Assembly: GCA_011049715.1 (NCBI GenBank)
Contig: DRHF01000057.1
Coordinates: 797-64,796, forward strand
Reading direction: 5' to 3'
Source: Desulfobacterales bacterium
GTDB taxonomy: Bacteria > Desulfobacterota > Desulfobacteria > Desulfobacterales > UBA2156
Length of the DNA stretch: 64,000 bases
Notes under the pieces: model-generated
Told to the model about the DNA's origin: nothing
The model's input: only the letters and a program-made list of their open reading frames with translations
The model's database searches: none
Shown: positions 6,838 through 20,361 of the stretch, in pieces
Layout: each line of letters starts with the position of its first letter
Numbering within the stretch: the first letter of the stretch is position 1
Translations under genes and position numbers: made by a program

Positions 6838-7124
6838 CTTTGTTCATTCTCCTAAAGAGTTCCTATTTTACGAATTATACCTTGGTAACCGTTTATTTTT
6901 TCATTAACTCTTTCTTTTTTGTCTCATATAATAGAATAGGTATATTATATATTAGAACAAAGGCATTTGTCAAGGGATTTTTTCCGGCATAAAAACCAAC
7001 ATTAAAATTCAATGTGACGCCTTTGAAAGTCGTAGGAAATCCAAAAAATGATTTTACAGTTTCTGGTTAGTTGGCAGACACATTTAAAGCTTTTCAATGG
7101 TTTTCCATTTGTCTCACCTCTTAA

Positions 7125-7157
7125 AATTATTCTGTTTTCTTTAAACACAGAATAATT
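7125..7157. promoter_or_regulatory. perfect 11-bp inverted repeat (candidate operator) upstream of the toxin-antitoxin pair
   Basis: AATTATTCTGT (7125-7135) and ACAGAATAATT (7147-7157), spacer 11 nt, about 65 nt upstream of the 7222 ATG. Confidence 0.4.
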
Positions 7158-7221
7158 TCACTTTGATTTAATATTTTCAGGTCGATTTGAAAACTGTGAC
7201 GGAAAAAGGAGTGGTTGGAAG

Positions 7222-7467
7222 ATGTGTTACAACCATGATGTGCGGGAAAATGAGGTCGAGGAGGTACTCCAAAAGCCCGGTGAGGACCGGCCGGGCAAGG
7301 AAAACTCTCGAATTGCTATCGGACAGACACGGGGTGGGCGATATCTTCGAGTTATTTATGTCCCCGATCCTGAGCCCAACAGTGTATTTGTAATCACGGC
7401 ATATAAATTGGTAGGAAAACCCCTTAAAGCATATCGGCGTCGAGGCCGAAGGAGACAAAGACTATGA
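7222..7467 (+). CDS. small toxin-like protein (BrnT/DUF497- or DUF4258-like; family assignment tentative)
   Basis: 81 aa: ...ENEVEEVL...RIAIGQTRGGRYLRVIYVPDPEPNSVFVITAYKLVGKPLKAYRRR. ATGA overlap with the next small ORF, the typical TA layout. Confidence 0.6.
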   Translation: MCYNHDVRENEVEEVLQKPGEDRPGKENSRIAIGQTRGGRYLRVIYVPDPEPNSVFVITAYKLVGKPLKAYRRRGRRRQRL

Positions 7468-7661
7468 AACAAAATAGGTTCCCAAAAGGATGGGATGAAG
7501 AGCGCGTCAAGCGCGTTCTTGACCATTACGAAAACCAGACTGAGGATGAAGCGGTTGCCGAAGACGAAGCTGCTTGGGAAGATGCATCCCAGACTTTCGT
7601 CAAAGTTCCGAATGAACTGGTTCCTGCTGTGCGGGAATTGCTTGCAAAGAAGGTAGCCTGA
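7464..7661 (+). CDS. putative antitoxin (small acidic protein)
   Basis: 65 aa, acidic (WDEERVKRVLDHYENQTEDEAVAEDEAAWED). Translationally coupled (ATGA) to the upstream toxin-like gene. Confidence 0.55.
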   Translation: MKQNRFPKGWDEERVKRVLDHYENQTEDEAVAEDEAAWEDASQTFVKVPNELVPAVRELLAKKVA

Positions 7662-7829
7662 TCCTTCATTAACAAATATTGGGATTTACGTTTCAGAGCA
7701 CTTTAGCGGTCTAACTTTAATTTTGACAGCTTGATGCAATGGAGTTAGGGCTACCAATTTACTGATTCACAGAATTCACCCAGCTAAATTGATGATTTGG
7801 TTAATTTGCGTTTAACTGGTTTGACGGGC

Positions 7830-8228
7830 TTAATAAATGATATGAAGTTTCGAGAAGTATTTTTTGTAAAAGCCGCGGTCTCTTGTAAGGAGTTGATTCG
7901 CCTGTATCTCGGCATGTGCTCCTATTAAAAAATCAACCAGGATACGGTTGCGCCTGCCACCAGCTTTTCGATAATTTTTCCATATCCGTCCTGCATGGTA
8001 TGCCACCTTAAGATCCAAAGAGATGATACGAATGCTGAGGACTTTTAGCGCATCGTCCAGAAATGCTTTGCTGGAAAATTGTGGCGATAGTTCGGAATAT
8101 ATGATTTCATTGATGACTAGCGATCCCTGATTAAACGCCTGTTCTAAACCAATTTTTGATTTCTGCCCAAATTTGGGATCAGGTAAAAATACATCAAGCA
8201 ATACATTGGTGTCAACGAAGGTAATCAT
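7830..8228 (-). CDS. vapC: PIN-domain toxin VapC
   Basis: 132 aa with N-terminal MITFVDTNVLLD (PIN acidic residue). 4-nt overlap with the upstream antitoxin gene. Confidence 0.85.
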   Translation of the reverse strand: MITFVDTNVLLDVFLPDPKFGQKSKIGLEQAFNQGSLVINEIIYSELSPQFSSKAFLDDALKVLSIRIISLDLKVAYHAGRIWKNYRKAGGRRNRILVDFLIGAHAEIQANQLLTRDRGFYKKYFSKLHIIY

Positions 8229-8440
8229 CTGCCTCTTATCGACTCAATGTAAGGGTCCGTTCGGGCACTTTTTCTCAAAATTCCGTAGACTTGTTCCACA
8301 GGACTAACGTGGTGTGTTTTTTTTCGAATCAGCACACCTGTTTTTTTTGGGACGAAATCGACTTCGATTTGGTGCACAAGTCCATACTTTTCACGTATAT
8401 CCTTAGGAATGGTAACCTGTCCTCGCTCTCCAATTTTCAT
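8225..8440 (-). CDS. vapB: AbrB/MazE/SpoVT-type antitoxin VapB
   Basis: 71 aa. MKIGERGQVTIPKDIREKYGL is a SpoVT-AbrB swapped-hairpin motif. Overlaps the vapC start. Confidence 0.8.
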   Translation of the reverse strand: MKIGERGQVTIPKDIREKYGLVHQIEVDFVPKKTGVLIRKKTHHVSPVEQVYGILRKSARTDPYIESIRGR

Positions 8441-9513
8441 ATTGTATCACCCATACTTTCATAATTTAATTTACATATTAAAACTGTTTGATCCGAATGT
8501 CAATCGACCTTTGCAAAAACCCGAATTTTGTTCGTCTCAGGCGGGGAACTCGCGACCTTCCCGTCAGGAATGACGGGACAGTCTCACAAACGTTTCAATG
8601 AACTGTTTACTTTTACCCTGATTTTTCCCTTAAAATGCGCCCTATGTGGCTCCATGTTGCAAACCAGTGTAGAATCTCAGAAAAAATGAACAAGAAACCG
8701 GCAGTGTTTCTCAAGATAAATGATCTGAGTGCGGATATTCTCAAATAATTTGGACCGGCGTAAACGATATAACAATTAAAATAATTTGCCGATCAAATCG
8801 TTCGAGTCACTTTTAAAAAAACCAAATATTTGGTTTAATTTAATGTGAAAATCGCTATAATTCACTTGACTTGCCATCTTAAAATCATGATATCTGTAAT
8901 TGAAAGAACTGTGGTGAGTCCGGTGATACTGGCAAGGTATGTCAGGTTTTGATTCGGTCAAATTTGGGTCTGGATTTAGAGGATATCACAGGTTTCTTAA
9001 GATCTAAGGTACTCTCAATAAATCTTTATTCGCATGATATTTAGTTTTCTGGCCATAAACCTCCAAGACACCTCTACATTTTCCCAAATCATCCCAATTA
9101 GATATGATGCATTATACATTTAATTTACACTTAACCATAATTAGATTTATATACCACAATTTAACACATTGAAAATAAAGACAATTAACTATTGACATCA
9201 CGTAAAAACAATTCTATATCACATCGTGACATACATATTCCTCTCAATCTCATTTTATTCTCAAGTGAAACTTGGATTCCTTTTCTGATCTTCTAGCTGA
9301 GTTGTCCTCGTTTCTGAATTTCTGCTACACCGGAATATATTTGGTTCCCCTTTAGATTTAGCCTATGAAACAGGTAAAGATTCAATGGAGAAACCTCTCA
9401 AAATGTGCATACCTTGCTCCTGACAGGATATGGATGTCTTGTTAGGAGCTATTGTTTGTTTTCATCAATATAAAGTCCTTTTGAGATCAGAATTACAAAA
9501 TAGCTGATTGTAC

Positions 9514-9547
9514 AAGACAAGGGGGTCAGGTCTTCATTCTTCACTCT
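9514..9547 (+). repeat. 34-nt direct repeat, proximal copy (brackets potFGHI)
   Basis: AAGACAAGGGGGTCAGGTCTTCATTCTTCACTCT. 33/34 identical to 14187-14220. Confidence 0.9.
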
Positions 9548-9730
9548 TTTTAATGAAATTTTCTTATAAGGATACGAGATTACAGATAACAACATTAATA
9601 GGGTCTAATGCTTTTATTTGAAGCGTGCTTCATTAAGACCTGATTGGCACTCAAGCCACTGTGGCTTGGGAATTGTAATCCAGAGCGAATATTGCTCTTA
9701 TTTTTAAATGTTTAACTGAGGAGGTACGAT

Positions 9731-10846
9731 ATGCGTTACATATTTAAAAAATTGAATGCGCCCCTGATAGGTGCCATCGTATGTGCAATGATGCTTGGAG
9801 TGGGTAGTGTATCTGCTGAAGGTGTATTAAAAGTCTACAATTGGGCAGAGTACATCGCCAAGGACACAATTTCCAATTTTGAGAAAGAATATAATATAAA
9901 AGTCACCTACGACAGTTACGATTCTGCTGAAACGGTGGATGCCAAAATATTGACGGGTTCCACCGGTTATGACGTTATCTTACATGCGGGTAGTTTCGTT
10001 GGTCGTTTAGTTCCTGCCAATATCCTGATGAAACTGGATAAATCAAAATTACCCAACCTTAAACATATGCGTCCAGATATTATGAATCAGCTGTCAGCGA
10101 ACTGGGACCCAAATAACGATCACGTTATTCCCTATATGTGGGGAACCCATGGTGTGACTTATAATGCGGAAGCTGTCAAGAAAGTTTTCCCTGATGCGCC
10201 TATCGGCAGTATGGATTTAATTTTTGATCCAAAGAACATTGCCAAATTGGCCAAGTGTGGCGTGTCCTTCTTGGATTCCCCAACAGATATCATTCCCATG
10301 GCATTGACCTACATGGGCAAAGATCCAAGTTCCACAAATTTGCAAGATTACAAGGATGTGGAAGCAATGTTGCTTAAGATCCGGCCGTACATTAAAACTT
10401 TTGATAACTATGCTTATCAGAAAATGCCACAAAAGGAATTTTGCGTCTCGGTTACCTGGGGTCCGGATGGACTGCTCGCCATGTCCGGCGCGAAAGAAGC
10501 CAATACCGGTGTCATTCTGGATTTCTTTGCCCCACCGGGTAAAGACGCGTCAGTCTTGTGGATTGACGTCTGGCTCATTCCGCCTGATTCCAAGAATGTG
10601 GAAAATGCGCATCTTTTCTTGAATTACATGATGCGCCCGCAAGTAGGTGCCAATGATAGCAACTTAACCTGGTACGCTACTGCCAATAAGGATGCTTTCG
10701 ATCTGGTTAATGCAGCGGTGACTTCCAGCCCTGCAGCTTATCCACCAGCAAAAGCAGTGGCCTTGATGTACACTTTAAATATACTACCCGCAAAAGTGGA
10801 ACGTGCCCGTACCCGCGCCTGGACAAATTTTAAATCAGGCAAATAA
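9731..10846 (+). CDS. potF: putrescine/spermidine ABC transporter periplasmic binding protein (PotF/PotD family)
   Basis: 371 aa with a signal peptide. LKVYNWAEYIAKDTISNFEKEYNIKVTYDSYDS matches the PotF/PotD N-terminal block. SD GAGGAGG. Confidence 0.85.
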   Translation: MRYIFKKLNAPLIGAIVCAMMLGVGSVSAEGVLKVYNWAEYIAKDTISNFEKEYNIKVTYDSYDSAETVDAKILTGSTGYDVILHAGSFVGRLVPANILMKLDKSKLPNLKHMRPDIMNQLSANWDPNNDHVIPYMWGTHGVTYNAEAVKKVFPDAPIGSMDLIFDPKNIAKLAKCGVSFLDSPTDIIPMALTYMGKDPSSTNLQDYKDVEAMLLKIRPYIKTFDNYAYQKMPQKEFCVSVTWGPDGLLAMSGAKEANTGVILDFFAPPGKDASVLWIDVWLIPPDSKNVENAHLFLNYMMRPQVGANDSNLTWYATANKDAFDLVNAAVTSSPAAYPPAKAVALMYTLNILPAKVERARTRAWTNFKSGK

Positions 10847-11032
10847 GCCAGGTTAGGAATGAGATAAAAATAACTTAGAAAAGTTGGCGGAGACCGCTCC
10901 TTTGAATTTTTTACGATATTCAAGGCGCTTGATCGTTTGCGTAGCAGAGCTATGTGGGCGATTAAGTAACGAAGAAAATCGTAGAAAAGGCAAGCAAGTT
11001 TATCAAGTTATTTTTTGAACGTTCCTTAGTTC

Positions 11033-11064
11033 AAGTGCTGTCTTCGGACAGCACTTTTTTTTGC
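11033..11064 (+). terminator. intrinsic terminator/attenuator after potF
   Basis: AAGTGCTGTC-TTCG-GACAGCACTT (10-bp stem, UUCG loop) followed by TTTTTTGCG. Confidence 0.8.
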
Positions 11065-11102
11065 GTTAGTAAAAAGTAGATTAACGCTTCGGAGTACAAT
11101 CG

Positions 11103-12248
11103 ATGCCCCAAGAAACTTCCCCTGACAGTCAACCCTGGTTGAACCCTGATGCGAAACCTTTCATTAAGTTGCAGGGTGTTACCAAAAAATTTGGGAACTT
11201 TGCCGCAGTGGATAATGTGGATCTGGAGGTTTACAAGGGCGAACTGTTTTGCCTTCTGGGTGCATCGGGTTGTGGCAAGACCACCTTGTTAAGGATACTG
11301 GCCGGATTTGAGACGCCAAGCTCCGGAAAAATCACCATTGATGGTGTCGATATGACGGATGTACTACCTTATGAGCGCCCGGTGAATATGATGTTTCAGT
11401 CATACGCTTTGTTTCCACACATGACTGTGGAACAAAATGTGGCATACGGATTAAAACGTGATGGCCTAGGTAAGTCTGAAATCGAAGGACGGGTGCAGGA
11501 AATACTGGCCCTGGTTGAACTCACCGATTTGCCTCAACGTAAACCACACCAATTGTCCGGTGGTCAGCGACAGCGCGTTGCACTGGCAAGAGCATTGGTT
11601 AAAAAACCTAAAGCCCTATTGCTTGATGAACCACTGGCTGCTTTGGATAAACGCCTGCGTGAACAGACGCAGTTTGAATTAATGAACATTCAGGATCAAT
11701 TGGGTATTACTTTCATGGTGGTCACTCATGATCAGGAAGAGGCCATGACCCTTTCAACACGTATTGCGGTCATGGATAAGGGTCGCTTTATACAGGTGGG
11801 GACACCTACGAGCATATATGAATTCCCAGAGACTCGATTTATTGCCAACTTTATTGGTACTGCTAATATGTTTGAAGGTCGGGTGATTAAAAGCAATGCT
11901 GGTTTTTTGTTGATAAAAAGTGAGGCTGATAATACCGAACTAAGTGTGGATTATGGTGCTGCTATGAGCGAAGGCCGTCGGGTTTGGGTAGCGGTGCGTC
12001 CGGAAAAAATTCAAATATCCAAGCTGCCCTTTGATGAATCTGGCCCCAATCAGCTGAAAGGTGTGGTGCATGACATAGGCTACCTGGGCAGTGCTTCAAC
12101 CTATCGTGTAAAAATTGCGGGTGGTAAGATAATTCAAGTCAGTTTTCCCAATCAGCGTCGACCCACGGATGATCAGTTTGCGGTAGATTGGGATGATGAA
12201 GTCTACTTGAAATGGTATTCATCCTCAGCGGTATTGTTAACCAAATGA
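11103..12248 (+). CDS. potG: polyamine ABC transporter ATP-binding protein (PotA/PotG)
   Basis: 381 aa with Walker A GASGCGKTT, signature LSGGQRQRVALARAL, Walker B LLLDEP, and a C-terminal TOBE-like domain. Confidence 0.9.
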   Translation: MPQETSPDSQPWLNPDAKPFIKLQGVTKKFGNFAAVDNVDLEVYKGELFCLLGASGCGKTTLLRILAGFETPSSGKITIDGVDMTDVLPYERPVNMMFQSYALFPHMTVEQNVAYGLKRDGLGKSEIEGRVQEILALVELTDLPQRKPHQLSGGQRQRVALARALVKKPKALLLDEPLAALDKRLREQTQFELMNIQDQLGITFMVVTHDQEEAMTLSTRIAVMDKGRFIQVGTPTSIYEFPETRFIANFIGTANMFEGRVIKSNAGFLLIKSEADNTELSVDYGAAMSEGRRVWVAVRPEKIQISKLPFDESGPNQLKGVVHDIGYLGSASTYRVKIAGGKIIQVSFPNQRRPTDDQFAVDWDDEVYLKWYSSSAVLLTK

Positions 12249-13192
12249 TTGTTCAAAATTCCAGTAATGGCCTGGCACACATTTATCGTAGGTGGAGCAA
12301 TAAAATACAAGGCAGCTGGAAGCCCATCATAGTCACTATCCCCTACTTTTGGCTTCTCCTGTTTTTTCTTGCGCCCTTTTTTATTATCCTGAAAATAAGT
12401 CTGGCTGAATCCCTGATCGCCATCCCTCCATTTTCAGCATTATTGCAGTGGACCAGCGAGGGCGTACCACAGATTCAACTCGTTTTTGATAATTATTCTT
12501 ACCTATGGGAAGATGATCTTTATATTAAGACTTATTTAAATTCCTTAAGAATCTCAACGCTGTCCACTGTGATTTGCCTGCTCATTGGGTATCCCATCGC
12601 TTACCATATTGGAACGTCAACTCGGACCAAAAAAAATATTCTCTTGCTGATGGTTATTCTTCCATTTTGGACTTCGTTTCTTTTGCGTGTCTATGCCTGG
12701 ATGGGCTTACTGGCAGATCAAGGGACTATTAATGATATGCTAATCTGGTTGGGATTGATCGATGATCCCATCCGAATGATGTATTCGGAATTTGCGGTCT
12801 ACGTTGGCATTGTTTATTCCTACCTGCCTTTTATGATATTGCCCTTATATGCCAATATAGAAAAGTTGGACATGACTTTGAACGAGGCGGCGGCGGACTT
12901 AGGCGCCAAACCCTGGGTTACCTTTATCACCGTGACCTTGCCCTTGACTATCCCTGGAATAATTGCAGGTTCTTTATTAGTGTTCATACCCGCCACTGGA
13001 GAATTTATTATTCCCGACCTTTTGGGTGGCGGCAATGTGTTGATGATAGGAAGAGTATTATACAATGAGTTTAATTCCAACCATGATTGGCCCGTGGCCT
13101 CAGCAGTGGCCATCGCACTATTGCTGGCTCTGGTACTGCCTATGATGTGGTATCAGCACATTCAATCAAAACAAACAGATGCTGCATTATGA
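12245..13192 (+). CDS. potH: polyamine ABC transporter permease (PotB/PotH)
   Basis: ORF 12212..13192. I chose ATG 12245, which overlaps the potG stop (ATGA). EAA-loop block NEAAADLGAKPW. Confidence 0.85.
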   Translation: MIVQNSSNGLAHIYRRWSNKIQGSWKPIIVTIPYFWLLLFFLAPFFIILKISLAESLIAIPPFSALLQWTSEGVPQIQLVFDNYSYLWEDDLYIKTYLNSLRISTLSTVICLLIGYPIAYHIGTSTRTKKNILLLMVILPFWTSFLLRVYAWMGLLADQGTINDMLIWLGLIDDPIRMMYSEFAVYVGIVYSYLPFMILPLYANIEKLDMTLNEAAADLGAKPWVTFITVTLPLTIPGIIAGSLLVFIPATGEFIIPDLLGGGNVLMIGRVLYNEFNSNHDWPVASAVAIALLLALVLPMMWYQHIQSKQTDAAL

Positions 13193-14043
13193 AAAAGAAA
13201 CGGTTCAACTTTACTTTTTCTGTACTCTGCTTTGGCATGGCCTTTTTATATGTGCCAATGTTATCACTGATTATTTATTCCTTTAACTACTCTAAAATTG
13301 TGCCTATTTGGGGTGGTTTTTCCATTCGCTGGTATGTACGTCTATTTGAAAGTGAGGCGGTATGGGCGGCTGCCGGTTTAAGTCTGAGGATTGCCCTGGT
13401 GAACGCGACTTTTGCAACATTGATTGGAACCTTTGCAGCTTTGGCGATGGTACGTTTTGGAAAGTTTAAGGGTCGGACCTTATTTAGCGGCATGATTACA
13501 GCGCCCTTAGTGATGCCAGAAGTCATTACCGGACTTTCACTTCTACTACTGTTTATAACGCTAAAGGAATTTATAGGTTGGCCAGAATCCCGGGGATTCA
13601 CCACCATAACCATCGCACATATTACATTTTCCATGGCCTATGTGGCCGTCATAATACAATCACGCCTTGCAGGCATCGCTCTGACACTGGAGGAAGCGGC
13701 GGCGGACTTAGGCGCGAAACCTTTTCGTGTATTAATTGATATAACCTTCCCCTTGCTTGCGCCAGGAATGATTGCGGGATGGTTGCTGGCCTTTACTTTG
13801 TCGCTAGATGATCTCGTAATCGCTAGTTTTGTTTCTGGCCCAGGTTCTAATACTTTGCCTATACTGATTTATTCGCGCATTCGATTAGGCCTGCGTCCGG
13901 ATATTAATGCACTGGCTACCATCATTATTCTTGCCGTGACCATTGGCATGTGTATTGTCGGTTGGCTGATGCATCGTCAGCAGATACTGCGTGATCGTGA
14001 TTTACACATGGCTGGCATAGAAAATCAAAAGTTCGATATTTGA
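13189..14043 (+). CDS. potI: polyamine ABC transporter permease (PotC/PotI)
   Basis: ORF 13087..14043. ATG 13189 (MKKKRFNFTF...) overlaps the potH stop (ATGA). EAA-loop block EEAAADLGAKPF. Confidence 0.85.
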   Translation: MKKKRFNFTFSVLCFGMAFLYVPMLSLIIYSFNYSKIVPIWGGFSIRWYVRLFESEAVWAAAGLSLRIALVNATFATLIGTFAALAMVRFGKFKGRTLFSGMITAPLVMPEVITGLSLLLLFITLKEFIGWPESRGFTTITIAHITFSMAYVAVIIQSRLAGIALTLEEAAADLGAKPFRVLIDITFPLLAPGMIAGWLLAFTLSLDDLVIASFVSGPGSNTLPILIYSRIRLGLRPDINALATIIILAVTIGMCIVGWLMHRQQILRDRDLHMAGIENQKFDI

Positions 14044-14186
14044 CCCTCCTGAATCCACTCAACGAAACTCTTATCTTCTGCTTCGGTCGCCGCATTAATG
14101 CGCAAATTCAGATACCGCGTTGACCAGTTTCAATGCGATCGCTCTTCTCAGTTTCGACAAAGGTGGGCGGCGACTGCCAGATTGCG

Positions 14187-14247
14187 AAGACAAGAGGGTC
14201 AGGTCTTCATTCTTCACTCTCCATTAAATTCTGTCAAGAATGAAGAC
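14187..14247 (+). repeat. 34-nt direct repeat, distal copy, extended into a perfect 12-bp hairpin
   Basis: AAGACAAGAGGGTCAGGTCTTCATTCTTCACTCT (14187-14220). Stem GTCTTCATTCTT (14203-14214) / AAGAATGAAGAC (14236-14247), 21-nt loop. Confidence 0.9.
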
Positions 14248-14755
14248 ATGGCCCCGATGGGTTCGGCCCTGTGGAATGCAGGGTCTATTCCTCCAGGGTC
14301 AGAGAAGAATCTTTTTTTCGTTGTACCAAACCGTGCTGCAGTCAAACAGACGAGTAACGGTTTTTCTCGCTTTTTTTTGTTAATGATGATAAGTGGACAT
14401 AACTACTTCAAGTTTTTTAAATAATGAAAAGTTAAAGGATCCAACAACCTGAGAATTAGAAGCGATTTAAAAAACTGACACAGACCCGAGTGCATTGTTT
14501 ATAGATAAAGGATGCCATGGAATGAACATAAGAACCCTATTTTTCAAATAGAGAGGCGGGGTTTTGTTGTTTTAGGCACGAAACCATAGGGTGACTTACA
14601 ACGAAGGGTAGAAGTCGGGAGCGGGGGAACCGTCACCTCGCAGACGACACACAATATACGGTGAAATTCGGTTACGGTCTGGTGAGGGTTTCCGGTGGGC
14701 TTCGGGCCACGGAATTGTCTTTACCGTGGACGCGCAAGGGGACACATTCCATTAA

Positions 14756-15130
14756 CCGCAGGCCGATGTTGAAAAAGCCCTGGCCAGTGTCGACAGGAGC
14801 TTGCTGCTGTCAGAACGCGCCATGTTTTACCTGGAGCGCCTGCCACGGACGATAACGCTGCAAACCGAATTTATGATCGACCAGCTGACAACGATACCGG
14901 AAGTGGAAACGCTGCTTGCGGACACCAGTCGCCTTGCGAAGATGGCAGAGGATTTGCCCCGGCAGGTGAACAAAATGCGACGGGACACGATTACAGAACT
15001 TACCAGTTGGCTCGAAACCCAGAGACAAAAAATTTTCGCCGATTTGATCTTCCAAGAAAACCGGTTAAAAGGTGTTCTGTCGGAAGTCCGCCAGTCTCTT
15101 GAAGCGGGAAGCGAGCTGACCGATAAAATC
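14756..15130 (+). pseudogene. fragment of an unknown helical protein (no start, no partner domains)
   Basis: Open frame ...VEKALASVDRSLLLSERAMFYLERLPRTITLQTEFMIDQLTTIPEVETLLADTSRLAKMAEDLPRQVNKMRRDTITELTSWLETQRQKIFADL.... No credible start or SD. It sits in a visibly GC-richer patch and abuts the MFS fragment. Confidence 0.35.
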
Positions 15131-15521
15131 AACGCGACTGGTCGACCGTTTTGGCGCAGCTCGTATGGCTGTGCTTTATGCCGCTCTAACAGCGATGTTG
15201 CTTGCGCTCATTGGTGCGTTCCAGGACATTATGTTCTGGTTTCCCGCTCGCTTCGCGTTGGGTATTATGACCAATGGTACCTACGTCATAAGCGAGACTT
15301 GGGTTAATGAACTCGCAACTAGCCAAAACCGTGGACGTGTCATGGGTTTTTATACCACGATCCTTTCGGCCGGCTTCGCTTTAGGCCCTTTTATTCTAGC
15401 CATAACTGGAACAAGTGGTTGGCTGCCCTTTCTTGTTGTGATAACCATCATGTTGATAACAACCATAGGATTGTTTTTTATCTGTCACTGCCTACCGGAG
15501 TTCGCTAAGGATACAACATGA
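15120..15521 (+). pseudogene. truncated MFS transporter (about 4 TM helices only)
   Basis: The frame reads ...RLVDRFGAARMAVLYAALTAMLLALIGAFQD...ARFALGIMTNGTYVISETWVNELATSQNRGRVMGFYTTILSAGFALGPFIL. These are MFS motif A (DRxGRR-like) and the TM2-TM5 region. TM1 and the C-terminal half are missing. Confidence 0.55.
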
Positions 15522-16297
15522 ACGAAACTCAGAATTATGAATCATACACCAATGTGCTCAAAGAAAAGATCAAGGAATGGGGTGGAGATTTAGTGGGTGT
15601 TGCCGATGCTGAGCCCCTTAAAGCTCAACCTTTGGATCCTCCAGATCTTCTTGAACCATTTTCAAGGGCCGTATCCATAGCGGTCAGCCTACCCTGGGCC
15701 ACATTCGGTGAAATCAAGGACAAGCCGACGTTGATTTACGAGAATGTCTACCAGACTGCCAATCGAGTGTTGGACGAACTTGCATTCAAGACAGCAAAAA
15801 CCCTTGGAAATGACGAGTTTTACAGTTTGCCGATACCCGCTTCACAGGTTACGGATGAGAAGAACTGGTATGGAGCCATCAGTCACAAGGCGGTTGCAAG
15901 GATGGCCGGTTTGGGGTGGCAAGGAAAAAATCTGCTCCTCATCACTCGGCAATATGGTTCCACCGTGCGTTTAGTTACAGTATTGACCAACGCCCCTTTG
16001 GTGGTTGACGGACCTGTTGAAAATCGTTGCGGGAAATGTACGCTTTGCCAGAAAGCCTGCCCATCTGGGGCCATTAGGGGTGTTGGTACCAAGAATCATT
16101 ACATTGATCGGAATGAGGCTATGTTTTTCGATAAATGTGTAGCCCAGCTTAAGAAACATTCCATCATGCTTGAAACCTATTCATTAAAGGATGAAAACCG
16201 GGAGCCAACGCCAACTTATCATAAATTGATTTGCGGTCTTTGTATCAAAGCCTGTCCGTTCGGTAGAAAACCGAAAGGGAGGGCTGGTAAAGAATAA
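15518..16297 (+). CDS. QueG-like (epoxyqueuosine reductase family) 4Fe-4S protein
   Basis: 259 aa with HKAVARMAGLGWQGKNLLLITRQYGS plus ferredoxin motifs CGKCTLCQKACP and CGLCIKACP. Confidence 0.7.
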   Translation: MNETQNYESYTNVLKEKIKEWGGDLVGVADAEPLKAQPLDPPDLLEPFSRAVSIAVSLPWATFGEIKDKPTLIYENVYQTANRVLDELAFKTAKTLGNDEFYSLPIPASQVTDEKNWYGAISHKAVARMAGLGWQGKNLLLITRQYGSTVRLVTVLTNAPLVVDGPVENRCGKCTLCQKACPSGAIRGVGTKNHYIDRNEAMFFDKCVAQLKKHSIMLETYSLKDENREPTPTYHKLICGLCIKACPFGRKPKGRAGKE

Positions 16298-16628
16298 CCT
16301 GTCATTGGTTTTTATTCTCTGATGTAAGGATTGCTGTGGTTTTAAGCATCACAAAACTGGTGAAGGGGATTTCGATAAGTTGTACAATAAAAAATACTTG
16401 CTTATTATTCAGATTCCTCCATACAATTCGGTAAATATCAGTTCTGAAAATTTCTCTGGTTGGTCAGAAATTAAAAGAGCTTGCCGACGGCCTGAAAAAG
16501 TTCACAGAGGAAGCTGAAAAAAAAGAGGTAGGGATTCAGAGGTTCAGGGTTTGGGGTTCAAGATTGCTGATGCGGGAAAGGATGGGCGCTAACTATATTG
16601 GAAATGAGGGAAAAGAGGAGGCGGGAAC

Positions 16629-16901
16629 ATGGCTGAGGGGAAAAAGACGGTTAAAGTCAAAGGGGGATTCAGGTCTATGCTGGCGCTCCTGATCTCGATC
16701 ATCGCCCTGATTGTAGCTGTTATCGCCTACAATCGCACAGGCGGCGATATGGATATAAAAACGCAGTTGAATGAATTGCAGGGCACGATTGAAAAGATGA
16801 AGGGGGAAACGTCAAAGGGATTCAGCAAGTTCCGGGTGGAAACCTCCAAGGCTTTGGACAAGCTCAGTAAAATGATTAAGGGGAAGGAAACCGCTCAATA
16901 G
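16629..16901 (+). CDS. small membrane-anchored hypothetical protein
   Basis: 90 aa. SD GAGGAGG upstream. One TM helix (MLALLISIIALIVAVIAY) and a charged helical tail. No family recognised. Confidence 0.6.
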   Translation: MAEGKKTVKVKGGFRSMLALLISIIALIVAVIAYNRTGGDMDIKTQLNELQGTIEKMKGETSKGFSKFRVETSKALDKLSKMIKGKETAQ

Positions 16902-16938
16902 TGTTACCTCTGTGATCGAAGGACAATGACATTTCCCT

Positions 16939-17172
16939 TTTTACAATTTCACGGGCACCGGTATACCCTATTGGGAAAACTCGTTGATCCCCTTCAAAGC
17001 CATTCGTCCTGATATATTCTTTCAGACGGTCTGCAACCTTTTTGGGAATTAACACAACCTCGGATTATCTTCCGCTTTTGGGGCTTTGCAAGAATAATTT
17101 CCGATCATCGACATCCTTTGCGCGAAGCTTGAGGGCTTCACCAATCCGCATCCCTCCTCTGCCCAGCAAAAC
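16939..17172 (-). pseudogene. tyrosine recombinase (phage-integrase family) fragment with internal stop
   Basis: Manual minus-strand translation: VLLGRGGMRIGEALKLRAKDVDDRKLFLQSPKSGR*SEVVLIPKKVADRLKEYIRTNGFEGDQRVFPIGYTGAREIVK. This is the TGxRxxE(A/L)L...K.....v.ip block of integrase catalytic domains. TAA at 17065-17067. It is 5'-truncated (TAG at 17173-17175) and 3'-truncated (no H-R-Y region). Confidence 0.6.
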
Positions 17173-17770: not shown

Positions 17771-18357
17771 TAATTTTGTAAACAACTTGTGATCTCCAAC
17801 TAATCCCCACAATCTAGCTGTCCCCCAGGATCTGAGATTGACAAAACATATCCCCACCATTATCTCTTCTCCAAAACCCGGGATATTCGTGTCGGTTTGG
17901 ATGAACAGATATAGAGCATTTAAAACTAAATACCAATCGCAGGAATATGTCTATAAAATGCACTATTCCTGATTCTCAAAAAGTGAGCAATGCCAAATAC
18001 ATTCCTCGGAAATCAAAGAAAAATCTCTTCAATCCCGATATTTCATTTTTGAGTCTCCAATTTTTCTATTTTTCTGACATTTGAATACGAATTCTATAGA
18101 ATACACATTGTAATAAGCACGGCGCACCCGGGGATATCACAGGTTTTCCTAACCCTGGTGATTATCTCAATTTACCACAGGTTTCCTATGTGTCTTAAAA
18201 CCTGATATATCTCCAACGATTCGGTATATATCAGTTCTGAAAATTCCTGAGATTTGATTTTAATCACAGGTTGATAGGGTGAATCTTATCGCATGGATTT
18301 GCCCTTTTTATTTGCCAAAACCCCCATTTTTCGGGACTATGGTTTGACAACAAATAC

Positions 18358-18407
18358 AAAAATGCAATAAGTTGCATGTATCAATTTGGTATATGCTATA
18401 ATTTCAT
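18358..18407 (+). promoter_or_regulatory. about 50-nt conserved upstream block, copy 2 (promoter-like)
   Basis: AAAATGCAATAAGTTGCATGTATC...GTATATGCTATAATTTCAT. TTGCAT (18372-18377) and TATAAT (18397-18402) have a 19-nt spacer. About 70 nt upstream of the PilZ gene ATG. Confidence 0.4.
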
Positions 18408-20282: not shown

Positions 20283-20308
20283 TGCATCCTCCTAATAAAG
20301 GCAAGTAC

Positions 20309-20361
20309 TCAAGTTTCACACCCCCAATGGGGCACGGTGCCGTATCTGGTGTGGGGTAAGC
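20309..20361 (-). repeat. R2 structured repeat, copy C (in the 5' leader of the SQR-like gene)
   Basis: Plus strand: CTCAAGTTTCACACCCCCAATGGGGCACGGTGCCGTATCTGGTGTGGGGTAAG. Homologous to 61019-61080. Its GGTGTGAAACTTGAG box (minus strand) ends 25 nt before the ATG at 20282. Confidence 0.7.

Follow-up and report, generated by a model that had tools for sequence, protein, structure and literature searches.

The systems closest to the repeats described here are the REP/REPIN-RAYT systems, of which Nunvar et al. reportedly gave an account in 2010. Classical IS200/IS605 elements lack terminal inverted repeats and carry like-oriented subterminal hairpins at both ends. REP/REPIN-RAYT systems have been treated by Bertels & Rainey 2011 (PMC3116915) and Bertels et al. 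2017 (PMC5581495). The REP unit, in itself an imperfect palindrome, bears a 5' GTAG/CGTC tag (PMC3733652), and RAYT Groups 1 and 4 show modest 16-mer counts, with 12-14 occurrences (PMC5581495). The locus considered here lies in a 64,000-nt stretch of a Desulfobacterales genome (the window), where a potFGHI operon stands between two 34-nt direct repeats. We favor, at a probability of about 0.8, the reading that these 34-mers are arms of two separate non-autonomous RAYT-type elements flanking an imported potFGHI. The two 34-mers would then be the terminal arms of two small inverted doublets of the REPIN/MITE type, and the corresponding autonomous form would be a Y1 (HUH) transposase gene of RAYT type that has inverted copies of this arm at its two ends. 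Each doublet would have landed, or been locally copied, in non-coding DNA beside potFGHI, thereby leaving the operon, itself a presumed horizontally acquired putrescine/polyamine ABC importer of Pseudomonadota type, between two like-oriented copies.

The 34-mer AAGACAAGGGGGTCAGGTCTTCATTCTTCACTCT is found at 9514-9547 and recurs at 14187-14220 with one substitution (33/34). At up to three mismatches these are the only matches in the window (0 expected, 100 shuffles), confirming the sequence-only reading of a repeat pair around a complete potFGHI with no other copy in the window. Both repeats are present at the same spacing on ENA contig L108, and Logan contig L109, from another run, holds the operon and the proximal copy. 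The window 34-mer belongs to a dispersed family, with the core sequence GGGGTCAGGTCTTCATTCTTGAC, of which it forms the terminal arm. At E ≤ 0.01, an nhmmer profile detects 26 arms in the genome (G000, 5.38 Mb), and the 22-mer core occurs there 22 times within two mismatches, as against 0 for the reversed control, counts that are approximate because the assembly is fragmented (461 contigs, 5.35% contamination). Further family copies are carried by 9 of 30 relatives (10 in G001, 4 in G002, 15 in G004, 6 in G013 and 4 in G025, with four more relatives positive), and the carriers include congeners as well as other families of the same order. The motif is found in none of 160 pot loci of other organisms, and thus the repeats belong to the host lineage and did not come with the imported operon. 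Both window copies carry the commonest base throughout the core in the seed alignment, and their CACTCT tail is shared by the family member on C354. Their 33/34 identity arises because both are near-consensus copies in one subfamily, and not from duplication of an att site.

Both window copies are inverted doublets of this family, the distal one well kept and the proximal one decayed. The distal doublet has a left arm at 14187..14220 (+ strand; nhmmer E = 2.2e-9) and a right arm at 14228..14264 (− strand; E = 5.6e-8), an inverted copy of the same motif that forms a hairpin with the left arm (inverted repeat I2). As single-stranded DNA this doublet folds at -16.8 kcal/mol (z = -3.5), and 0 of 200 shuffles fold as well. 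The hairpin reported earlier at this site is therefore real, but its second arm, a third and inverted occurrence of the motif, reaches beyond the 12-bp stem then described. No T-run follows the distal doublet and the terminator scan made no call, and a role as an intrinsic terminator was accordingly rejected. The proximal left arm at 9514..9547 (+ strand), the exact 34-mer with a family-profile E-value of 1.8e-9, aligns with family members on C354, C350, C399 and C216. Contrary to the earlier view that this copy has no second arm, a MAFFT alignment that includes the distal doublet and those on C354 and C350 points, if weakly, to a decayed inverted right arm at 9561..9579 (− strand) that matches the distal right arm across a 3-nt indel. 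A possible further partner fragment of the proximal element, CATTAAGACCTGATTGG at 9631-9647, is suggested by a weak DNA fold pairing 9526-9534 with 9635-9643. The similar hairpin previously proposed at 9602-9640 gives a weak fold of -4.1 kcal/mol (z = -0.9). Elsewhere in G000, inverted pairs are present on C354, C350 and C399, and two are found on C216. The doublets of relatives (L123, L126) fold at about -29.5 kcal/mol (z = -9 to -10), and a single arm alone folds poorly (-3.3 kcal/mol, z = -0.27).

The transposase of the family is encoded at C110:14536-15474 as a protein of at least 313 aa, beginning MARPLRI, whose frame reaches the contig end. It scores 85.9 bits against the NF047646 model for REP-associated tyrosine transposases (cut-off 80), matches Pfam Y1_Tnp (PF01797) at 4.2e-15, and displays an HUH motif (NHYHLL) and a Tyr motif (SRYIHLNP); phmmer returned no solved structure at E ≤ 0.01. 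A complete orthologue of 317-337 aa lies between inverted arms about 1.0 kb apart in L122 (G025), L124 (G004) and L125 (G013). The left arm stops about 30-50 nt ahead of the MARPLRI/MSRPLRI start, the right arm contains the last five transposase codons together with the stop codon (L122, L124), and the end of the family is defined to a base or two. The same arrangement is seen in pieces in G000, with the left end on C110 and the right end on C344, C416 and C420. RAYT-type genes in this genome comprise at least three close N-terminal copies (C110, C444 and C344; 84-100% identical) in addition to diverged ones. On C444 an arm-plus-RAYT unit splits a gene that is intact on C208, and the homology between C444 and C208 ends directly before CGAAGACAACAGGGTCAGG, which is the point at which the window's 34-mer starts. 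The RAYT-type enzyme would be the likely mover of the doublets, and the two window copies probably arrived later than the operon. Congeners share no synteny around the locus, and no empty site was found for either copy; we therefore infer independent insertion from the behavior of the family.

The family resembles the REP/REPIN-RAYT systems in several respects. Its Y1/HUH transposase scores above the cut-off of the NCBIfam RayT model and is encoded between inverted copies of a short repeat; that repeat is scattered through non-coding DNA, where it clusters locally and often forms inverted doublets with long hairpins. It differs in having tens of copies and not hundreds, in arms that are singly non-palindromic and that start (C)GAAGACAA.. 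or ..AACATAGGGG without a GTAG/CGTC tag, and in a transposase with an extra C-terminal ~170 aa containing a weak DnaA-C-like HTH. The arm structure and a copy number that is modest for a REP family count against our preferred reading; the family's about 20-26 copies are at the bottom of the range, on a par with RAYT Groups 1 and 4 (PMC5581495). Unlike a domesticated single-copy RAYT, the transposase is multi-copy and has once inserted in a gene, and it therefore behaves like an IS. There is likewise a resemblance to IS200/IS605 elements and their MITEs, in the Y1_Tnp domain, the length of about 1.05 kb, the multiple copies and the short derivatives without a transposase. However, the ends here are inverted arms of 25-35 nt and the score against the transpos_IS200 model (NF033573) is 18.2 bits, below the cut-off of 55, and we therefore do not assign the family to IS200/IS605. 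The family documented here is REPIN/RAYT-like and previously undescribed, and it belongs to marine sediment bacteria of sulfate-reducer type.

The operon between the repeats has the full gene set of an importer, with a binding protein, a TOBE ATPase and two permeases. All four genes are on the + strand. potF (9731..10846, 371 aa; Pfam SBP_bac_8 and SBP_bac_1) encodes a periplasmic polyamine-binding protein of predicted putrescine type, and potG (11103..12248, 381 aa; ABC_tran and TOBE_2) encodes the ABC ATPase with its TOBE domain. The permease genes are potH (12245..13192, 315 aa) and potI (13189..14043, 284 aa), both with BPD_transp_1 matches and both also called as genes in L108, an independent assembly. 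In gene order and domain set the operon matches E. coli PotFGHI, and its PotF is 44% identical to the annotated E. coli PotF; the closest operons, at 70-80%, are uncharacterised ones from marine Alpha-/Gammaproteobacteria, in which the potF-G-H-I order is also found. Identity to Pseudomonadota loci is 65-74% for PotF, 70-72% for PotG, 73-77% for PotH and up to 80% for PotI, and the corresponding values for PotF/G/H/I of G020, from the same order, are 36/61/56/57%. Among the 30 relatives no PotF exceeds 37% identity, the genus has none, and the operon is missing from all genus- and family-level relatives. PotF falls inside a clade made up of Pseudomonadota only (SH-aLRT 100). These observations independently support the earlier view of potFGHI as foreign cargo, and the PotF phylogeny proposed as a check on it bears it out. 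The operon was probably imported from Proteobacteria (Pseudomonadota-type), and the locus thus documents the probable transfer of a polyamine importer between phyla. No PotF homologue above 74% identity turned up in GTDB genomes or JGI metagenomes, and no close plasmid-borne potF relative was found, every match being below 60% identity. Base composition and codon usage were set aside as evidence of transfer: the GC content of the operon (0.43-0.46) is close to that of the genome (0.457), and its codon usage is mildly atypical (80th-97th percentile of distance), partly as an effect of gene length.

The sequence-only reading had likened the 34-mers to duplicated att sites of an integrated or immobilised element; on this view they would be the attL and attR of a potFGHI island, made by a site-specific recombinase. 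The locus does share with att-flanked islands a pair of direct repeats, tens of bases long, around a self-contained foreign gene set, with 33/34 identity between the copies and TA modules and gene debris close by. Such islands are integrase-mediated and often located at tRNA genes, whereas the repeat here is not unique to the junctions and belongs to a transposon family of the host lineage. Many genomic copies of the 34-mer had been named beforehand as grounds for abandoning att sites, and since 26 arms of the 34-mer's family are scattered over the genome and 9/30 relatives have members too, that interpretation is refuted; the alternative offered alongside it, of dispersed repeats, was correct, and the earlier interpretation as a whole is partly supported. 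Further observations are difficult to reconcile with att sites. The 34-mer is the end of a Y1-transposase unit, and each copy has an inverted partner arm of its own. The only credible genes in 9514-14247 are potFGHI, and no recombinase gene lies between or adjoining the copies. Neither ORF piece (16.9-17.2 kb) of the supposed integrase fragment, 2.7 kb past the distal copy, matches Pfam at E ≤ 0.01. ARAGORN finds no tRNA or tmRNA in positions 1-25000 of the window. Within the bracket, adjoining the distal arm at 14118..14184 (− strand), is a host-type repeat remnant comprising the first ~23 codons of a multi-copy 54-aa helix-turn-helix gene, with the start codon lost; it is 88-97% identical to copies on C435, C266 and C20, the last of which is intact and has Sigma70_r4_2 and HTH_23 matches. 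We consider the att interpretation extremely improbable. A false island call is thus avoided: att-like direct repeats around a foreign operon may be copies of a miniature transposon of the host, and short direct repeats can mislead in repeat-rich genomes.

Other explanations take the repeat family as given. Local copying or gene conversion could have derived one window copy from the other, and the pair may mediate RecA-dependent deletion of the operon. The two copies are mutually closest (33/34, against ≤29/34 for other family copies), an observation that counts against two separate elements and also fits a direct duplicative relationship; both moreover have GATTG a few bases upstream, and family members form local clusters in other genomes, for example on G004:C127 and G013:C70. 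Beyond the 34-mer, however, the two elements are only loosely alike: their spacers differ by an indel, and only one of them keeps an intact right arm, the other's being decayed. In addition, 34 bp is close to the lower limit for homologous recombination. We regard direct derivation as possible but rather unlikely, and as a refinement compatible with the RAYT-type elements proposed above, not a replacement for them. It is also conceivable that 9514-14264 as a whole is a giant non-autonomous element in which potFGHI replaces the transposase and which a RAYT-type enzyme could move or duplicate. The proximal left and distal right arms do pair as inverted repeats around the operon, with 79% complementarity over 34 nt (I1), a dehydrogenase gene in G013 is placed between two near-identical doublets, and in G000 a VRR-NUC-like module (3 copies) and a 456-aa gene (2 copies) belong to repeated segments that begin at or near an arm. 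Against this, the operon is single-copy in the genome, no arm-bounded copy of it was found in relatives or metagenomes, the proximal element is decayed, and a complete small doublet explains each end more simply. We know of no case in which a Y1 transposase has mobilised 4.7 kb of cargo bounded by arms of this kind. We judge this explanation to be a long shot, and equally doubtful is the broader proposal that the arms let a RAYT-type Y1 transposase move gene cassettes, with potFGHI, the G013 dehydrogenase gene and the arm-initiated modules of G000 as examples. Were the arms, against the odds, to move cargo, this would be a new route of operon mobility, with a REP-type element as the vehicle for operon-sized cargo. 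Finally, the motif might be mainly a regulatory site of the host, acting as promoter or operator of several genes. Many arms end in TTGACA, arms lie 58-184 nt upstream of same-orientation genes (RAYT, potF, the C38/C387 gene and the C444/C208 gene), and a TATAAT-like box is visible by eye at a promoter-like distance in C98 and C110. But the window copies have TTCACT and not TTGACA, the promoter scan called no + strand site at either arm, on which ground a promoter role of the window arms was rejected, and the family also includes arms paired in inverted doublets, located at gene 3' ends or lying within a disrupted gene. Any promoter would most plausibly serve the transposase gene, and we hold a mainly regulatory role to be very improbable.

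The DNA around the two RAYT-type elements is itself repetitive. Directly upstream of the proximal arm, the region described earlier as AT-rich and non-coding is indeed AT-rich, but proves to be a different dispersed repeat of about 490 nt (8935..9428, + strand), with seven long copies at 74-83% identity and about 20 short ones elsewhere in the genome. Each of the eight copies that were read, the window's included, is followed at a distance of at most about 300 nt by an ORF of at least 97 aa in the same orientation. This repeated 'upstream module' probably supplies the region in front of potF. No Rfam match at E ≤ 1 is present in 7000-17000, and the region upstream cannot be attributed to any known riboswitch or RNA. 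The two TA modules reported upstream are confirmed as PIN/MazE and DUF4258. For the 8.9 kb upstream, G001, G004, G013 and G020 give no DNA match, and G002 gives only two weak ones. Downstream, a Fer4 gene and its G002 orthologue are 82% identical but have no neighboring genes in common. The genome, which is from marine sediment, carries dsrA, and the stretch around the locus is variable and ridden with repeats.

The four genes lying between the two 34-nucleotide repeats encode an SBP_bac_8 binding protein, an ABC ATPase with a TOBE domain and two BPD_transp_1 permeases. The name potFGHI is a fair one for this polyamine-uptake operon because the PotF protein is 44% identical to the annotated E. 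coli PotF. The repeats are found as originally described, with AAGACAAGGGGGTCAGGTCTTCATTCTTCACTCT at 9514-9547 (proximal) and a second copy with one substitution at 14187-14220 (distal). No third match with up to three mismatches is present in the window, and none arose in 100 shuffles. The sequence at the locus is backed by two assemblies, an ENA assembly (L108) that contains both copies of the 34-mer, and a Logan assembly from a separate run (L109) that contains the operon and the proximal copy. The locus is present in two sequencing runs from marine sediment, SRR1555744 and SRR7787409.

These 34-mers are the ends of a REPIN/RAYT-like family of selfish elements belonging to the host lineage. 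A family profile built from 18 copies detects 26 arms (single copies of the 34-mer-type motif) at E <= 0.01 in the 5.38 Mb, 461-contig assembly of the source genome, where the window occupies C57:797-64796. A degenerate 22-mer core, GGGTCAGGTCTTSAWWCTTSAC, has 22 matches in this genome at up to two mismatches, compared with 0 for a reversed control. Relatives carry the core too: the two congeners have 10 and 4 copies, a different genus of the family has 15, and several further families of the order have it as well. The presence of the core in both congeners ties the arm family to the genus. The source assembly has 5.35% contamination and is larger than the two congeners (2.9 and 3.6 Mb), an excess that may be due partly to repeats, accessory DNA or bin contamination.

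Several arms are followed, ~58 nt downstream, by a gene whose product starts MARPLRI. The representative on contig C110, of at least 313 amino acids, scores 85.9 bits against the NCBIfam model for REP-associated tyrosine transposases (RAYTs; NF047646, cut-off 80) and matches Pfam Y1_Tnp at 4e-15. A HUH motif (NHYHLL) and a tyrosine motif (SRYIHLNP) are readable in its sequence, and there is a weak DnaA-C-like helix-turn-helix near the C-terminus. The source assembly breaks inside the multi-copy RAYT genes, and the whole arm-RAYT-arm unit was seen in relatives with better assemblies. In three such loci (L122, L124 and L125, from genomes G025, G004 and G013) an orthologue of 317-337 residues lies between inverted arms ~1.0 kb apart, a geometry matched by the pieces in the source genome (C110 for the left end; C344, C416 and C420 for the right end). 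In L122 and L124 the last five RAYT codons and the stop codon come from the right arm (TCAAGAATGAAGACCTGA, encoding SRMKT and the stop), as is also seen at C344:1671-1705 in the source genome, and the end of the element and the end of the gene are thus locked together.

A gene of 456 codons and unknown function is whole on contig C208, while its paralogue on C444 is split by an arm plus RAYT (C444:1290-1400 versus C208:4655-4765), with homology between the two ending directly before CGAAGACAACAGGGTCAGG. The comparison demonstrates mobility and places the element's left terminus before CGAAGACAAC. The window 34-mers start at that terminus to within a base or two, AAGACAAG being preceded directly by gattgCG in one copy and by gattgtaC in the other. 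The first arm on C444 matches the second arm on C208, which suggests recombination at the arms. Homology also begins at the arm core in a module present three times in the source genome (C387:1047-1529, C38:4529-5011 and C339:966-1407), whose copies differ in length and carry a VRR-NUC nuclease-like gene of 122-200 amino acids (..FLEIKLPGD..).

At other sites the arms form doublets, pairs of inverted arms separated by spacers of ~10-80 nt. These doublets fold as long hairpins (~-29 kcal/mol and z = -9 to -10 for those of relatives), the same anatomy as REPINs and MITEs. Alignment shows that both window copies are likewise doublets and fall in one subfamily with copies on C354 and C350, laid out as left arm, CACTCT.., ..TTAAATTCTGTC, right arm. 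Of the two, the distal one has kept both arms in good condition (14187-14220 and 14228-14264), and the right arm of the proximal element (9561-9579) is decayed and has a 3-nt indel. The distal hairpin is real (single-stranded DNA fold -16.8 kcal/mol, z = -3.5), but the similar hairpin proposed at 9602-9640 does not rise above shuffled sequence (z = -0.9).

The sequence-only reading took the 34-mers for duplicated att sites of an integrated element, an interpretation that is refuted by the dispersal of the repeat, with its 26 arms in the source genome, and by the setting of the bracket. Many further copies in the genome were the very outcome that this reading had named as counting against it. 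There is no recombinase gene inside or at the bracket and no tRNA within 25 kb, and neither ORF piece of the supposed integrase fragment 2.7 kb away has a Pfam match. Inside the bracket, adjoining the distal arm, is a minus-strand remnant of ~23 codons with its start lost (14118-14184). It derives from a multi-copy host gene for a 54-residue helix-turn-helix protein (Sigma70_r4_2 / HTH_23-like), of which intact or longer copies lie on C20, C435 and C266. The arm motif is present in none of 160 fetched pot loci of other organisms. No empty site was found, the congeners lacking synteny at the locus and the collections lacking a close strain. That arms of this type can mobilise cargo is highly improbable.

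For ~20 loci placed independently in a genome of 5.4 Mb, the estimated number of chance pairs no more than 5 kb apart is ~0.3, and family members cluster in any case (on C208, C416 and C444 in the source genome; on G004:C127 and G013:C70 in relatives). The non-coding DNA of the source genome is a patchwork of dispersed repeats, a background against which one family flanking the operon is unremarkable. Both window copies carry the commonest base across the core in the seed alignment, which accounts for much of the 33/34 match between them. Even so, each is closer to the other than to any further copy (at most 29/34), and one may possibly have arisen from the other by local copying or gene conversion. 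Gene bracketing by these elements recurs: in G013, from another family of the same order, two near-identical perfect doublets 990 bp apart (348-403 and 1340-1395 of L123, G013:C70:7100-8850) bracket a dehydrogenase-like gene of 294 codons with an NAD-binding (Rossmann) glycine motif, an arrangement paralleling that of the window operon.

While the att-site interpretation falls, the observation of paired repeats stands, and the accompanying idea of a foreign cargo is backed by phylogeny. Apart from one 29% match, PotF has no homologue in genus- and family-level relatives, and across the order identity to PotF reaches at most 37%; the same-order genome G020 has identities of 36, 61, 56 and 57% to PotF, G, H and I. 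Each of the four proteins shares 70-80% identity with its counterparts at marine Alpha- and Gammaproteobacteria loci that have this gene order. In a maximum-likelihood tree PotF lies in a clade (SH-aLRT 100) whose other members are either labelled Pseudomonadota or unlabelled metagenome contigs. Inside that clade it groups with Kiloniellales and Rhodospirillales in a starred seven-row subclade, and the homologues of relatives fall outside. On this phylogenetic evidence the operon is foreign to the host, a genome with dsrA above the curated cut-off that we read as belonging to a sulfate reducer. The host-like GC content of the operon and its only mildly atypical codon usage indicate that the transfer is not recent. 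The potF-potG spacer (10847-11102) is 256 nt long, compared with ~100-125 nt in the closest foreign loci, and contains two 32-nt inverted repeats that pair with each other (10855-10886 and 10995-11026), as well as a strong hairpin of terminator type (11033-11056) followed by T8.

Just upstream of the proximal arm is an AT-rich repeat of ~490 nt (8935-9428) from a separate family, with 8 long copies (74-83% identity) and ~20 short or partial copies in the source genome and further representation in congener G001. It has no Rfam match. In 8/8 copies read, the window's included, an ORF of at least 97 codons in the same orientation follows within ~300 nt. Judged by their N-termini, the genes that follow appear unrelated; they include potF, one for a secreted-looking protein and two with hydrophobic N-termini. 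A tiny Cys-bearing ORF is kept in four copies (12 codons where the stop is visible; MEKPLKMCIPCS at 9385-9423 in the window), and one possible role for the repeat is that of a mobile module serving as promoter or leader. An element of ~50 nt, with no relation to the 34-mer family, occurs over 100 times in the source genome at 80-96% identity (for example C233:12110-12160 and window ~20306-20353). A further dispersed repeat, ~140 nt long, is present at least 20 times, with one copy directly upstream of an arm (C387:900-1040) and one in the window (18271-18404) that corresponds to the boxes flagged earlier upstream of the PilZ gene.
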